A stretch of DNA of 64,000 nt, taken from assembly GCA_049320885.1 (NCBI GenBank), contig JBMORA010000017.1, positions 32,001 through 96,000 of the forward strand, written 5' to 3'. Position numbers: made by a program. Positions 21,001 to 36,000 of the stretch are shown here, piece after piece. Origin of the DNA: Thermodesulfobacteriota bacterium. Lineage in GTDB: Bacteria; Desulfobacterota; Desulfobacteria; Desulfobacterales; SURF-7. The first letter of the stretch is position 1; every line of letters begins with the position of its first letter.

Positions 21001-24000
21001 TGGCTGCCTCCTTGCGGATTTTGGCGATCCGGTTGGGTCCGGCGTTGTAAGCGGCGAAGGCGAACAGGGTCCGGTCCATCTCACTGAAGGTCGCATCCTG
21101 AAAATACTCTTTCATCAAATGGTCCATGTATTTGGCGCCGGCATGAATGTTGGGTTCCAGCACCCGGACATCGCCGACCTTCATGTACTTACCGGTGGAC
21201 GGCAGCACCTGCATGACCCCGACGGCGCCGCTGGGGCTGCGGGCCTTCTGCTGGAGTCTGGATTCCTGGTATCCCTGGGCCGCGAGCATCAGCGGATCAA
21301 AACCGTATTGATGGCCGTATTTCTGGAACAGGGTCAGCAAGCCGCCAAAACGCTGCCAGTCATTCTTGCCGGTGGAATTGTAAATCTGTTTGATGCGGCG
21401 GTTGTATTGGGCCAGGCGATAGATGATGCTGGCCTGCTTTTTGACGGCCTTGTTGTAAAAATCGTTCAATTCCGCCACAATCCCGGGGTGTTGCTTGCGG
21501 ATGGCCCAGCCGGTCCGCCCGCCGGTGCGGAGCGCCACCTGTTTGTTGACGGTCATGCGGGGCAGGATTTTTTGCCATATCTCGGCCTTCCAGTCGTCCA
21601 CGATGATCACGTTCAGCAGGCCGGCGTTCACCATTTCCATCATGTCCTCGTCCTCAAGGGTGTTGGGCACGGCGACAAGATCCATCTCCGGCTGCTTCTC
21701 CTGGCGAAAACGGTTGTTGAGCTGCACCAGGCTTTCATAATAGCTGGAGGATTTGCGCACATGGACCTGCCGTCCGGCCAGATCCTCCACCCGGGTAACC
21801 GGCTTGGCGTTGGGACCGGTAATAACCACTTCCGCAACCGTCCGGCCAAGATCCGGGGATACAAAATCCACCATCCGGAGGCGTTCATCGGTGACGGTGA
21901 GGTTGCCGGCGGCGATATCCCCCAGGCCGGTGACGACGTTGGGCAGCAATTTGTCGCGGGAGGTGGGAATGATGATGACGGTGATGGGCCGGTTGCCCAG
22001 TTTTTTGCGGTATTTGCGGTTGACGTAGCGTTCGAACTCGCGGACCAGATCCGCGGTGATGCCGCTTTCCTGCCCTTTGTCATTGAAATACAGGGTCCGG
22101 CTGTAGGGCACCAGCACCCGGATGATGCGGCGTGCCATCATCCCGTCGAAGTCCCCTTTCCAGACCTGGGCAGTGGTGGGCAGGGCAGCTGCCGGTTTTC
22201 CCGGGACGGCCGTCCCGGCCGGCTGTGGTTGCTGGGCCGGAGAAGCCGCCATGACCTGCGAAACGGCATGGAACAGGAACACCATCGATAGAAGCCATTT
22301 CATATAACCGCCTTTCCCGATCCCGAAGGGGCCGTAAAAATTATAAAAGATTGTTTTTATTAAGATTTTTCAACACTGCGCGGCACAGGGAGTCCACCAC
22401 TTCCGCAACGTCATCCGGATCCATGATTTCCGAGGAGACCGACCAGATCAGTTTTTCCGTGGCGGTTTCATACAGATTGGTTTCCAGGCGGACAAACACA
22501 TGCTGGCTGTAGTATCCGGGGTAGTGAACGTAATTGTCGACATAGGTGTAATAGGGGCCGAAACCATAGGAAGTCGCGGCCGGGACCCGCTGCATGGTGG
22601 GCGGGGTGTAGACTTCCTCTTCGTCGACTCCCAGCAGATGGGCCACCAGCACTGTATCCGTGCCGAGTTCCAGGGCCTTGGCCTTCAATGTATCCTTGGT
22701 CACTTTTTGATCCGCGGGGATCACCGCCGAACTGGCTGTCGCCGTGACACCTTCGCTGTTCAATTCCCTGGCGAAGGTCTCCTCAAAGAGTTTGCGGTTA
22801 GCGAGGTTGTCGGAAACGCCGACCACCAGGATTTTCTGGATGCGTCCCTTGTAGGCTTCGTCCTTGTACTCGGAAACCAGTTGGGTGGTGGTGCAGGAAG
22901 CCGCCCCCAGCAGAAACAGAAAAAGGAAGGATGAATGGATGAACCTGATTCTTTTACACATGAATGGCGTCTCCTTACGGTTAGGATGAAAATGGATATC
23001 CGGCGAACGGTCACCACCCGGCTCCTGTATTCCAACGAACGATCAGGATCAGGTTGCCGAGTTATCAACCGGTATGGCATCAGCGGAACAGTATCTTTCT
23101 ACAGGAACCTGTTTCCCCCGTCAAGGTGCAGCGTGCTTATGCCGCACCGCCGATGGTAATGACCTTCATTTGCCTATCTTCTTATTCATAAATAATGATC
23201 AGTCTGATGTTGCCGCCGGACCCGGTTTGATTTTGAAGAAAGATGATACCGGTATCAGTATCGCCAGCATAAGTATAACCATCGTTGCGATCATCATCAT
23301 CACATTCGGCTGGTCACTAAACGCACTGGTTGCAGCTATTACTGCAACACTGGCATTTCGTGCGCCATGCATGTATCCCATGGCAATCATTGAACCGCGT
23401 TCCGGCCACCCAAGCAGGTAACCGATCCCAAAGGCGACAACGATGTAGATCACTCCTGCAAGAAGTGTATATGTGCCAAACAAACCAATGAATGGCTTAT
23501 AATAAAGCCCGACGAGTGTTAACAGCAGTAAAACCACGAAAAGGCGTGAAATCAGATGCAGGTACTTTTCGGCCTTATGGGCCGCCTTCTCAAAGCGTGA
23601 TCTGATAAAGAGCCCCAGAAGCAACGGCGCCACTATGGTAAGGACCAGCTTCAACACCAGATGCTTTACATCAACTTCAACATCAGGAAGAAATACGCCA
23701 ATCATAACAGGGATGTAGATGATTGTAATGGCAATCGACATGGCAAGTATGCCACCGGCAAGAGAGACATTGGCATTGGATTTGGCCGTAAATATGGGGC
23801 CTATCTCTGCTCCTGCCGCCATGGACAACAATACCAGGCCATATCTCAGCGTCGGATCAAGACCAAAGAGCCTCGCAATGGAGGTGGCAAGAAGCGGAAG
23901 GATGATGTAGCTCGTAACAATCGCTGAGATCGTTAAACGTACATTCGTAAGAGGTTCAATAATCTGTTTGACCGTCTGACTCAATCCCAATGCCAGCATT

Positions 24001-33000: not shown

Positions 33001-36000
33001 GGCAGATGAGGCCTGCGGGGCCGTGGTTGGAGACCTTGCACTTGTAGTACAGGCTGAAGGCCCCGCTGGTGGAGCCGGCCGTCGTGGGATAGACGAAGAT
33101 CTTGCCGGTCACGATTTGGCCTTTAGTGTCAGCGCCTGGCGCCATAACCATGCCGTCCTCGTTGCCGACGTGGTTGAACGCCCATCCGATCCGCTGGCGA
33201 TTCACCAACGCTTCGCCTGCCGCTTTTCCTTTAGACCGGGCGATGCCGGTTAAAACGATTTTTTGTTCCATAATATACTTCTCCTTTACTGTTTGGCGCC
33301 GCTTCCTGGGCAGGGAATGCAGCACATATGTTTTTCCCCGGGGACCGTCCCTGAGTCATCGGGAGCCCTCAAAAAATCGGATAATCCGATCAATCGCTTC
33401 ATCGTTTACAGCCCTCTCTCAACTCAGCCCATGTTCTCTTCCGTCCGGGCGATGATTTCGGCCTGCTGTGAGGGTGACAGGTCGGTGAAATACGCGCAGT
33501 AGCCGGCAACCCGCACGACCAGATCCCGGTACTTTTCCGGGTTCTTCTGTGCGTCCAGCAGGGATTGTCTATTGAGGATATTGAACTGGATGTGGGCATG
33601 CTTCTGGCTGCTCCAGACGCGGATAAGCTGCATGAGCCGGCGCGTCCCTTCCTCTCCGGCCACGTTGGCCGGCGCCATCTTCATGTTGAGCAGGTCTTCC
33701 CGATGCGTTTTGTAGATCTGGCAGGTCGCCCTGGCGATGGACTGGAGGGTCACCGTGGGCCCCTTGGTGTCGCAGCCGTGGGAGGGAACGATGCCATCGG
33801 ATAGATATTCTCCGCCTCTCCGGCCGTTCGGCGTGGCCATGGTCACCCTGCCGGACGGGTTATGAAAGGTGATCGGAATGATGCGCATGTTGGCGCTCTG
33901 GCCATGGGGCCTGGGATGGTTGTGGGCATACTCCATAACGGTTCGCTGGATGTGGTAGCCGATGGTGTCCACCCATTCGATGCCGTTGCCGTACTTGGGG
34001 GCATTGAGGCACATCTGACGAATGGCCTCCATGCCTTCCCAGTCGCACTCCAGGGCATCGAGGAGCTGGCCCCATGTGAGTTTCTTCGTGTCGAAAATGA
34101 GATGCTTGATGGCAGCCAGGGAATCGATGCAGGTCGCGAACCCTCCGAGCCCGTCGATGCAGGAAGCATCCAGCGCCCCCGGGATGTAATCACCGTGGGT
34201 GTGGAGGTCCCGGCCGTGCTCCATGCACAGGTCATGGAGCGTGGAGGCTAGCGGCGCCGCGATATACTTGGGCTTCTGCGCGACCGCTATGTAGTTCTGG
34301 ATCATGATGTGCTTGACGACGTTCTCGAGCTGCATCTTGTAGGCATTCCACACGTCGTCGTAGGTCTTGAACGTCCGCGGATCACCCGTCTTCAGGCCGA
34401 ATTGCTCGTCCTTGTAGATTTTCATCCTGCCGTCCCGGAGCGTCATCTCCATGACCGCGCCGTAATTGATGCCGCCATTGCCGGTCTTGTGGGTCTCGCG
34501 GTTGGGCAGGCGCGATTCCGAGCACCCGGACATGGCGTAATCCAGGGCTTCCCGTTTCACGATCCCGTTGCTCATGAACCACGGCACCTCGAACTCGTCG
34601 TTGATCAGTTTGGGCGAACCCTTGCCGTCCTTGATGGTCTCGGCCACCGCATGCAGGAACTTGTCGGGCGTACCGGCGTGGATCCGGACCCCCAGCTCCG
34701 GGTAGCTGCACTTGAGCGGCCGGGTGGATTCCAGGATCAGGTAAGAGAGTTCGTTAGTGGCGTCGAAACCGTCGGGGGTCTGGCCGCCGATGGTCACCGT
34801 CTCGTGATGGGAGAATCCCTCGCGGCCCTTGGCTGCGGATGGCGACATTTGCGACTCGATGCTCTGCATGATGTGCAGCCAGAGGCACTGGAACAGCTCC
34901 TGGGCCGCTTCCGGCGTGATCCGGCCTTCTTCGAGGTCCTTTTTATAGGTGGGATAGAGATACTGGTCCATCCGGCCCTGATTGACTTGCCCTCCGACCA
35001 TCTCCTCCAGACGCGAGAAAAGCTGGGTGAACCACTGGGCCTGGACCGCTTCCCGGAAGGTGCGCGCCGGGTTCTTCGGAACCCAGGCGCAGACGGCCGC
35101 GATCTCCGCCAATTCCTTCTTGCGCTGGGCATTCGTCTCCTTGGCTGCCATCGCGGCGGCCAATTCGGAGTATCGTTTGGCGAAGAGGCTTAATGCGTCG
35201 CAGGTGATGATGGCCGCTTCGTAGAAGGGCTTCTTGAAAGCCAGGTCGCGCGGATCTTCCAGCGCGGCCAACCGCGCCTGGGCTTCCGCGCGCAGACCCT
35301 TACAGCCGCGCTTCAGCATTTTCTCAAAATCAGGGACCCAGTTCTGGGAATGTCGCATGGTTGAAGTGGAAATGATCACGAACGAAAACGTGGTCCCGAC
35401 ATTCTCGGGGTCAGAACCCCAGAACAAGTGTCGGGTTTCAGGAGGCAGGGCCTTGATGAAGTTTGGGGTAAAGTCCTTGCCTTTCCAATAAGGGAAAAGA
35501 ACCTCGTCAATGATCTTCTTGTCTTCCTCAGTCACGGTAACGGCGTCCGGGGCTCCGGCCTCTTTGGCCGCAATGAACGCTTTTGCTCCCTCTTGGATGA
35601 TCGTGCCGTCAAGCTCCGGGTAAACCAGCGAGTACCGTCCGAACCAGGCGCAGGGCCGGCCCACGATCAGCTCATCGTCGAAGATGGCGACCGAGATCTT
35701 TTCCGCGATGTGTTGCAGGGCTTTGGCCCAGCGCCAGACCAGCGGCTGACCTTCCGTGGCCTTGAAAGACTCCGTGAAGTATACTGCCCGTTCCAGGGCG
35801 ACCCGGGGCGGACCGGAGGAACGAATGGCGTCAAACATTCTGAGAACCCGGTCGGTGGCGGTTCCATGCAATACGTTTTTGCCGTCGGCAATGGCCTGTT
35901 CCTGTGCGGAAAGCACAGATGCAATGTGTTCATTTGTCATGGTCGCTTTTGCTCCTTACTATTTTATAAGATCATGATTCAAATAGGTATCCACGCTTTT

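Follow-up and report, generated by a model that had tools for sequence, protein, structure and literature searches.

In the window, the whole 64-kb stretch of DNA analysed here, we found every gene named in the initial annotation to be present and intact on the minus strand between positions 23199 and 35940, with a glycyl radical enzyme (GRE), aconitase X (AcnX), a phosphofructokinase (PFK)-like protein and a GRE activating enzyme (activase) at its centre and two-component genes upstream:

37242..40082, minus strand, sensor histidine kinase (PAS/GAF/HisKA_3, from Pfam), probable regulator of the cluster
36604..37245, minus strand, NarL/FixJ-type response regulator, 79-84% identical in loci L001 and L005
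36034..36474, minus strand, receiver-only response regulator, 93 nt upstream of the GRE
33424..35940, minus strand, GRE of 838 aa, "RxSQNW" clade, closest to IslA/IseG/HpsG
32834..33271, minus strand, AcnX small (swivel) subunit (PF01989)
31296..32786, minus strand, AcnX large subunit with TkAcnX-type Fe-S cysteines and 3-hydroxy-acid-binding residues
29729..31126, minus strand, putative class I SAM-dependent methyltransferase-fold protein (the "unknown 465-aa protein"), from structure and profile matches
28545..29651, minus strand, AI-2E family transporter, a low-GC passenger
27301..28473, minus strand, PFK-fold pseudokinase, predicted activase partner, overlapping the activase start by 4 bp
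26333..27304, minus strand, activase (radical SAM CX3CX2C and auxiliary ferredoxin domain; TIGR02494)
24730..26331, minus strand, AspT/YidE/YbjL-family exchanger, accessory
24128..24733, minus strand, beta-class carbonic anhydrase (PF00484), accessory, overlapping AspT by 4 bp
23199..24059, minus strand, SBF/BASS-family symporter, accessory

L001 and L005 likewise have a copy of the histidine kinase, 60-67% identical, on the upstream side of their GRE. The AcnX small subunit probably starts at 33271 (145 aa) and not at the longest ORF start (33325), because homologs begin at that methionine, and the 465-aa protein probably starts at 31042. The AI-2E gene, missing from the earlier gene list, lies inside the cluster and is not conserved at this position in related loci. 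Four RNA runs (of 16 listed) left it and the two-component genes almost uncovered, which proves nothing. Promoter and terminator scans returned roughly chance levels (14 versus 10.6 +/- 2.7 and 22 versus 19.8 +/- 5.1, respectively).

The GRE has the features of the 1,2-eliminases of its superfamily, namely the Gly loop (G813 in RVAGY) and a Cys-x-Glu motif (C473-S-E475). R196, S198, Q199, N200, C473, E475 and R686 are invariant in all 25 aligned GREs. The closest solved structures are IseG (5YMR), HpsG (6LON) and IslA (7KQ3), at 755-809 bits, which share with it the CxE motif, both anion-binding arginines and an activase with an auxiliary ferredoxin domain. In IslA, R189 and R678 bind the sulfonate, and Q193 is sulfonate-binding and catalytically essential (PMC13450708 section 5.6.3). 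Alignment with 7KQ3 showed that the arginine pair is kept as R196 and R686, whereas the equivalent of Q193 is N200, invariant in the clade, with a Gln one residue earlier (Q199). The van der Waals contacts of IseG, Ile190, Thr310 and Phe680 (PMC6453916), are replaced by Q199, G317 and I690 when mapped through the IslA alignment, and several aromatics are missing. The neighbourhoods also differ, with AcnX, putative methyltransferase and PFK-like genes here and most of the carriers tested lacking dsrA. Because the Gln and the three contact residues have changed despite the kept CxE and both arginines, the substrate is probably new. The GRE does fall under the NCBIfam cut-off for HpsG (NF048011), as had been noted, by a narrow margin (991.7 versus 1000); 2 of 11 broad-clade relatives pass it (1012 and 1018), so that this model does not tell the clades apart and the current cut-off would mis-annotate some clade members as HpsG.

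A divergent isethionate/DHPS sulfolyase that feeds sulfite to respiration would agree with the nearest structures, the near-threshold HpsG score, the two retained arginines and the dsrA gene of the host. We regard it as improbable given the exchange of the essential Gln and of the Ile/Thr/Phe contacts, dsrA above cut-off in just 2 of 10 other carrier MAGs (completeness not given), and no TauE-type exporter among the neighbours scanned. Our best guess for the reaction is instead a radical 1,2-elimination from an anionic hydroxy-acid. Under that model the leaving group would most often be expected to be sulfite, although at less than even chance, then water or a ring oxygen, then phosphate or phosphite, and least of all some other group. 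The substrate is a guess because no substrate-specific transporter or downstream enzyme recurs among the loci. A carnitine/TMA-lyase activity was considered and dropped, since the pocket appears to lose aromatics and to gain basic residues.

The AcnX large subunit resembles that of TkAcnX, the two-subunit type IIb mevalonate 5-phosphate dehydratase (7CNR/7CNS). It keeps three cluster cysteines (C160, C353, C412; Cys110/283/342 in TkAcnX) and the 3-hydroxy-acid-binding residues E179, S180 and K433 (Glu129, Ser130, Lys361), all invariant in 12 of 12 sequences and in agreement with a type II [4Fe-4S] AcnX hydro-lyase, together with an equivalent of Ser131, and thereby retains the residues that in TkAcnX bind the carboxylate and the 3-OH. 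Type IIb AcnX takes a phosphorylated substrate (PMC8184944), whereas no counterpart of its phosphate loop (Gly48-Val49-Ser50, Asn53, Asn79) can be recognised here; the region is unaligned, and by eye the loop is replaced, with D101 at the position of Asn79. Further differences are an N-terminal insertion and a GRE partner in place of the UbiD-type decarboxylase. NF051439, a model of the fused form, gives the large subunit alone 146 bits (cut-off 700). Only one GRE subclade has AcnX; in others an SDR takes its place or joins it, and these SDRs match generic FabG/BDH-like structures that name no substrate.

The 465-aa protein, previously listed as unknown, probably has a SAM-methyltransferase fold, although in a low-confidence model (pLDDT 53). 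It falls in a CheR-family cluster of the ESM Atlas (0.95), 10 of 11 members match PF10017 weakly, and nearly all 50 VIA-align rows are methyltransferases (top Z 8.1, rmsd 3.6, 140 aligned). Its motif I, FIDVG, is an incomplete GxGxG, and Foldseek returned no match to the model at E <= 0.001.

The PFK-like protein has an intact PFK fold (pLDDT 84; TM 0.90 to E. coli PFK, 1PFK; Foldseek E 1e-27) and scores below cut-off on all PFK profile models. We take Asp103 of the PFK GGDG motif to be the Mg ligand and Asp127 to be catalytic. Among 207 PFK-like sequences, with the numbering transferred through alignments, Asp is not among the six commonest residues at position 103 (S125 here, variable S/A/G/P), Arg replaces G104 in 163, Glu replaces D127 in 202 (E149 here) and R171 in 172, and the His of H249 is kept in just 10. 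S147, E149, N150, D151, E244 and R/K312 are conserved, and the invariant S147-x-E149-N150 could be a retained catalytic site. Compared with 6-phosphofructokinase (PfkA/mixed-substrate), part of the sugar-binding half is retained, but the protein has lost the Mg/ATP residues and much of the 6-phosphate site; by its residues, it is a putative disabled sugar kinase.

Its gene keeps company with the activase. In 67 of 80 metagenome loci (the best 80 of 382 confirmed) the activase is the gene directly downstream of it, the other 13 stopping within 150 nt, and the pairing recurs in 18 of 19 activase-carrying GRE-anchored loci, in all three close copies from five further carrier genomes and in four of five non-self matches among 400 phylum genomes. 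One locus (L128) has a strong PFK-like match (44%) with no activase within 1.5 kb. The pair is also found beside GREs that share just 29-33% identity with the one here and carry the motif GCVG, without the Glu, where the activases are still 59-73% identical; the activation cassette serves at least two unrelated GRE classes. Pairwise identities, which are not independent, correlate more strongly for PFK-activase than for GRE-activase (rho 0.85 versus 0.71; 0.52 versus 0.20 inside the close clade). Neighbouring genes also co-vary through linkage alone. The activase itself is well defined (TIGR02494, 333.9 bits against a cut-off of 174.35), with the CX3CX2C cysteines C38, C42 and C45 in 52 of 52 sequences. 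L024 has an activase without a PFK partner, and none was found in its genome, which suggests that the partner is dispensable.

Complex prediction for the PFK-like protein with the activase scored 0.71, versus 0.09 for the best control. In calibration 116 of 157 solved pairs and 2 of 215 mismatched ones came up to the mark; the present score comes from our own alignments, and the calibration applies to it only roughly. The runs share at least 45% of contacts, with partner pLDDT of at least 82, and the PFK-like protein is predicted to reach the activase through a beta-hairpin (residues 89-101). PDB matches to the activase, 18 in number, are PFL-activase chains and ferredoxin-domain proteins only, with no PFK complex among them. 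Predicted interface residues are no more conserved than the rest (p 0.59 for the activase, p 0.11 for PFK). In the activase of L024, 3 of 7 invariant interface positions are changed versus 9 of 96 elsewhere (p 0.033, one post-hoc case); at a 90% threshold the counts are 3 of 10 versus 23 of 143 (p 0.23, not significant), and three paired relatives show 0 of 7, 1 of 8 and 0 of 7 changes. On the modelled complex, the activase appears to have a dedicated partner derived from a disabled sugar kinase. The accessory subunits of other GREs (HPAD gamma; BSS beta/gamma; MASS beta/gamma/delta) are likewise additional proteins, which modulate how the radical is installed or kept stable, but these are small Fe proteins on the GRE (PMC13450708 section 4.2), unlike the 390-aa pseudoenzyme predicted here on the activase.

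It is improbable, to the same degree as for the sulfolyase reading above, that the PFK-like protein is an active pathway kinase, followed by AcnX as dehydratase and then the GRE, in the manner of the archaeal mevalonate-5-phosphate route. The intact fold, the conserved residues and the phosphorylated substrate of type IIb AcnX would accord with such a role, but the D103 and G104 equivalents are gone, this AcnX shows no recognisable MVA5P phosphate loop, the modelled activase sits on the former ATP face, and the gene accompanies the activase in unrelated GRE classes whether AcnX is present or not.

AspT, carbonic anhydrase and SBF travel with the cluster only loosely. AspT was found at 7 of 31 class A and 4 of 21 class B loci, both RxSQNW classes, and at none of 25 class C loci; carbonic anhydrase at 40% identity or more occurs in 3 of 31 class A loci, many loci being truncated. 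A GRE decarboxylase coupled to substrate/product exchange by AspT and to carbonic anhydrase in a proton-motive loop would agree with the distribution of AspT and the translational coupling of these two genes downstream of the activase, and HPAD and IAD also use the Cys-loop Glu, IAD needing an Arg as well (PMC13450708 section 5.4). With each of the two genes in a minority of loci, and the GRE scoring 992 on the HpsG model versus 366 (IAD) and 308 (HPAD), we consider this slightly less credible still.

The proposed recurrence across phyla was borne out by an independent GRE-anchored search, in which 23 of 31 GTDB loci (in 22 genomes, two loci coming from one MAG) have 85-94% GRE identity. AcnX adjoins the GRE in 18 of these, and the other five contigs stop in or just past the GRE. 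The large subunit is a 46-49% paralog in 4 of the 18 and frameshifted in one. The approximately 90% identity attributed to the operon applies to the GRE and the two AcnX subunits (85-97% across about ten phyla; GRE coding DNA 82.5-90.1%), but not for the 465-aa protein (60-77%), the PFK-like protein (54-85%), the activase (72-91%) or AspT (46-78%); PFK-like gene and activase together span 54-91%. Ks of the GRE/AcnX cassette is unsaturated (0.36-1.05), with 0.36-0.58 to Verrucomicrobia, Nitrospira, Binatia, Anaerolineales and Planctomycetales. Most flanking-gene DNA matches (>500 nt) in two congeners reach only 64-79%, less close than these Ks values. The GRE was not found in 17 genomes of the same family. 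The gene cluster is real and has been passed between unrelated bacteria, in line with the horizontal spread first proposed. It is not one fixed operon with the PFK-like protein as a pathway enzyme, as first described: the PFK-like gene tracks the activase, AcnX is tied to its GRE subclade, and the operon consists of two cassettes, catalytic and activation, that would recombine independently.

Mis-binning of MAGs, to which most carriers belong and among which several copies are frameshifted (L013, L021, L023, L025, L027), is a negligible explanation for the cross-phylum identity, as six carrier contigs span 430 kb-1.08 Mb, the isolates Luteitalea sp. TBR-22 and Sphingomonas limnosediminicola, whose genomes contradict it, carry 86-87% GRE copies, GC3 has drifted toward the host (0.62 in Bacteroidota versus 0.79 here) and copies differ by 10-17% in DNA from the gene in the window. 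We found no mobile vehicle: plasmid relatives are all <60% identical (19 records for the GRE, 30 for the PFK-like gene), viral contigs hold no GRE relative and one 33% PFK match, the window contains no tRNA, and boundary repeats are limited to short chance-like pairs. Synteny with the two congeners is too broken to place island ends. No donor or order of events was deduced because resolution in the phylum tree is low (3 of 13 branches starred) and its clustering is no greater than in shuffles (71/200).

The explanation that we favour, by somewhat better than an even chance, is that both cassettes serve one anaerobic pathway, in which a pseudokinase binds the activase and a CxE-type GRE eliminase works with AcnX. 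The PFK-derived pseudokinase, a case in which adjacency and loss of kinase residues are observed, binding is modelled and function is inferred, would be a dedicated subunit of the radical-SAM activase, docking by the face where true PFKs bind ATP onto the Fe-S cysteine loop and the auxiliary ferredoxin domain, and may stabilise, shield or gate the activase. The GRE would abstract a hydrogen at the carbinol carbon of a hydroxylated, anionic, probably also carboxylate-bearing substrate other than isethionate or DHPS, with loss of the neighbouring group, and [4Fe-4S] AcnX would dehydrate or hydrate a 3-hydroxy acid before or after this step. In sister clades an SDR may act in place of, or besides, AcnX, and the SAM methyltransferase would be an optional add-on. 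A bolder extension, which we hold only tentatively, is that the pseudokinase is a ligand-gated subunit whose sugar half senses a metabolite while its former ATP face covers the Fe-S loop, deciding when glycyl radicals are installed and letting facultative soil bacteria of many phyla run O2-sensitive GREs, here for a new eliminase acting on a soil carboxy-sulfonate or similar di-anionic hydroxy-acid.

Among the papers listed by searches of mainly open-access literature, we found no report of this system or of a PFK-like helper for GREs, nor any that joins a glycyl radical with aconitase X or with a pseudokinase, consistent with the earlier description of the pathway as undescribed. A partner touching the auxiliary ferredoxin domain would be a direct handle on that domain and may help activase production. 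The pathway is testable because the two cultured isolates carry the GRE. In soils and sediments the clade would mark a new anaerobic reaction, and contigs of its relatives are plentiful in the RNA libraries of four studies.

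Each gene listed in the initial annotation was found, uninterrupted, on the minus strand, together with an AI-2E transporter gene that the list had omitted. The cluster reads in this order:

minus strand, sensor kinase
minus strand, two response regulators
33424-35940, minus strand, glycyl radical enzyme (GRE)
minus strand, small subunit of aconitase X (AcnX)
minus strand, large subunit of AcnX
minus strand, 465-aa ORF
minus strand, AI-2E transporter
minus strand, PFK-fold (PFK-like) protein
minus strand, GRE activase
minus strand, AspT
minus strand, carbonic anhydrase (CA)
minus strand, SBF symporter

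The PFK-like and activase genes overlap by 4 bp, as do AspT and CA, and activase and AspT are separated by 1 nt. The genome encodes five further GREs (27-33% identical to the window's GRE) and one further PFK (31% identical to the PFK-like protein). A low-GC stretch right past the operon 3' end carries an antitoxin-like HTH gene and a PIN-domain gene (17538-17882 and 20031-20444).

A GTDB scan anchored on the GRE yielded 31 loci, 23 of which (22 genomes) encode a GRE of 85-94% identity, bearing out the recurrence across phyla. The record titles of these 23 close loci name Desulfatirhabdiaceae, Deltaproteobacteria, Thermodesulfobacteriota, Verrucomicrobia, Bacteroidota, Ignavibacteria, Nitrospira, Binatia, cyanobacteria, Anaerolineales, Planctomycetales and NC10; further copies occur in two cultured isolates, Luteitalea sp. 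TBR-22 (87%) and Sphingomonas limnosediminicola (86%). Of 15 close copies that are full-length, 12 show a Ks of 0.36-0.58 relative to the window's GRE; the other three, two from Bacteroidota and one from Ignavibacteria, reach 0.92-1.05, and their GC3 is down to 0.62-0.63. Ka/Ks is 0.05-0.15. The flanking genes share just 64-79% DNA identity with two congeners (matches >500 nt). No close GRE copy was found among 17 genomes of the same family; two of these encode an IslA-like GRE (48-49% identity), with no PFK-like gene within the surrounding 17-18 kb. In the phylum, the PFK-like gene occurs in 6 of 401 genomes, the window's included. Horizontal spread of the GRE system under purifying selection is well supported. 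The tree is too poorly resolved for a donor to be named, and no mobile vehicle was found among plasmid records, viral contigs, tRNAs in the window and boundary repeats. A short non-coding element at 18589-18920, resembling a MITE or IS end, has many matches in two congeners (70-89% identity).

The cluster divides into two cassettes, a catalytic one with the GRE and AcnX and an activation one with the PFK-like gene and the activase. Of the 23 close loci, 18 have AcnX next to the GRE, and the remaining five contigs stop there. The proposed identity of about 90% holds for the AcnX large subunit in 13 of the 18 (87-96%), but not for the far more diverged PFK-like protein and activase, whose Ks in the same loci is mostly 0.9-2 or saturated (L001 excepted). 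The large subunit is frameshifted in one locus and a 46-49% identical paralog in four (L001, L002, L013 and L015, about 12600-14500), next to GREs of 89-93% identity; here AcnX is exchanged in place. The 465-aa gene comes next in 11 loci, never alongside the 46-49% AcnX type. In L005 (15219-16601) it is fused at its end to a C-terminal activase fragment, likely a recombination scar.

We sorted 111 loci, many cut off by contig ends and some duplicated, by GRE identity into classes A (at least 75%, n=31), B (50-75%, n=21) and C (about 30%, n=25), with 34 unclassed. In classes A, B and C respectively, AcnX was detected in 20, 1 and 0 loci, an SDR of the main type in 5, 11 and 0, AspT in 7, 4 and 0, and the PFK-like gene in 21, 20 and 25, counts inflated because 80 of the 111 loci were chosen via a PFK query. 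Further neighbours differ between loci (glutaminase, DcaP, DUF1254, SulP, sulfatases, MetK, NfuA). A carboxymuconolactone-decarboxylase/AhpD-family gene adjoins class A and B GREs (L035:2829-3671 and seven more loci). Beta-keto acid cleavage enzymes lie close to class B loci (L021:19122-20723, L024:17299-18810, L060), some with an MFS transporter, and hint at a 3-oxo-acid product.

Compared with the archaeal mevalonate 5-phosphate dehydratase TkAcnX, whose ligand and substrate-binding residues are given in PMC8184944, AcnX keeps the cluster ligands and the carboxylate- and C3-OH-binding residues but shows no recognisable phosphate loop. Its predicted substrate is a 3-hydroxy acid, suggesting that the pathway involves a carboxylate. 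The 465-aa protein, initially listed as unknown, belongs to a small, tight family (27 matches in 1.84 billion representatives, mostly fragments); three partly independent searches indicate a class I SAM methyltransferase fold, with a modest model pLDDT of 53. It looks accessory, since its Ka/Ks is higher (0.26-0.44).

The structure model of the PFK-like protein has a PFK fold, but kinase residues are altered across a set of 207 sequences. With numbering taken over from pairwise PFK alignments, D103 is replaced by S/A/G/P, G104 by R (163 sequences), D127 by E (202) and R171 by E (172), and R243 and H249 are lost in most; S147, N150, D151, E244 and R/K312 are retained. The activase lies directly downstream in 67 of 80 metagenome loci, the other 13 contigs stopping within 150 nt, and in 18 of 19 loci of the GRE-anchored set, chosen without regard to the PFK-like gene. 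The PFK-like gene also accompanies class C GREs (29-33% identical to the window's), whose activases are still 59-73% identical to those of class A. Class C GREs have a Cys loop GCVG without Glu, fall under all NCBIfam cut-offs, and are an undescribed class served by the same PFK-like/activase pair. Their loci often encode, downstream, a further PFK-like paralog as well as a 4Fe-4S protein. Examples are:

L072:2616-5030, class C locus
L076:4915-7329, class C locus
L107:125-2593, class C locus

Complex prediction for the PFK-like protein and activase scored 0.71, against 0.09 for the best control; 116 of 157 solved complexes reach this mark, as do 2 of 215 mismatched pairs, counts that are approximate because the alignments were our own. 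Runs shared at least 45% of contacts, with partner pLDDT of at least 82. The predicted interface involves activase residues 38-41 (radical-SAM cysteine loop), 81-102 (auxiliary domain), 183-185 and 216-221, and PFK-like residues 85-100, 126-133 and 360-365. PFK-like F87, R126, S129, I130 and K133 align with PFK F76, G104, M107, G108 and R111, presumably the ATP pocket. None of 18 activase matches in PDB shows a comparable complex. Against the model, predicted interface residues are no more conserved than others. The L024 activase (12544-13449), with no PFK-like partner at the locus or in its genome (completeness not given), is altered at N99, L102 and N183, that is at 3 of 7 invariant interface positions versus 9 of 96 others (p 0.033; 0.23 at a looser conservation threshold), and this natural control agrees weakly with the model. 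The PFK-like protein is, as modelled, a probable activase-binding pseudokinase, the most surprising part of the system, more so than the AcnX link. In about half of 52 activases the second auxiliary Fe-S cluster has lost three Cys (activase positions 78, 103, 109), which the window's activase retains.

The closest solved structures to the GRE are IseG, HpsG and IslA. In these C-S lyases two Arg and one Gln hold the sulfonate (PMC13450708, section 5.6.3), which Ile, Thr and Phe contact (PMC6453916). The GRE keeps both Arg and the CxE motif but has Asn for Gln, and Gln, Gly and Ile for the Ile, Thr and Phe contacts. IslA W374, Y485 and Y587, which we take to be pocket residues, become His, Gly and Cys, and each subclade gains basic residues close by (R373/K485, or K364/K378), which may lie in the pocket. 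The host genome encodes dsrA, as do just 2 of 10 other carrier MAGs. Because of the pocket changes and the few carriers with dsrA, we read the GRE as a candidate new eliminase of a larger anionic hydroxy substrate, independent of sulfite respiration. Clade GREs at L035:321-2816 and L038:3686-6193 score above the NCBIfam HpsG cut-off even though Asn replaces their Gln ligand, which is likely to lead to mis-annotation. The dsrA-bearing host also has a fatty acid cis/trans isomerase gene (43534-45966).

Overall, this is a real GRE system that has spread horizontally and is undescribed. Among the papers listed by literature searches, none describes it; relatives may already be included among the AcnX subclasses IIc-IIf in the PMC8184944 supplement or the IseG cluster members in that of PMC6453916. 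The word 'aconitase' is absent from the abstract, the passages and sections 2, 4.2, 5.4 and 5.6 covered of a 2026 GRE review (PMC13450708), and the accessory subunits described there attach to the GRE, not to the activase.

In RNA libraries, 6-14% of sampled words were found in 16 runs of seven studies. Four runs, one apiece from four soil or paddy studies, were mapped and gave 1,475-11,735 variant contigs across the GRE, AcnX, methyltransferase, PFK-like, activase, AspT, CA and SBF genes, evidence of presence and gene order, not of transcription level or one transcript. Single contigs span each of the junctions from the GRE to the small AcnX subunit, between the AcnX subunits, and from the large subunit to the methyltransferase.
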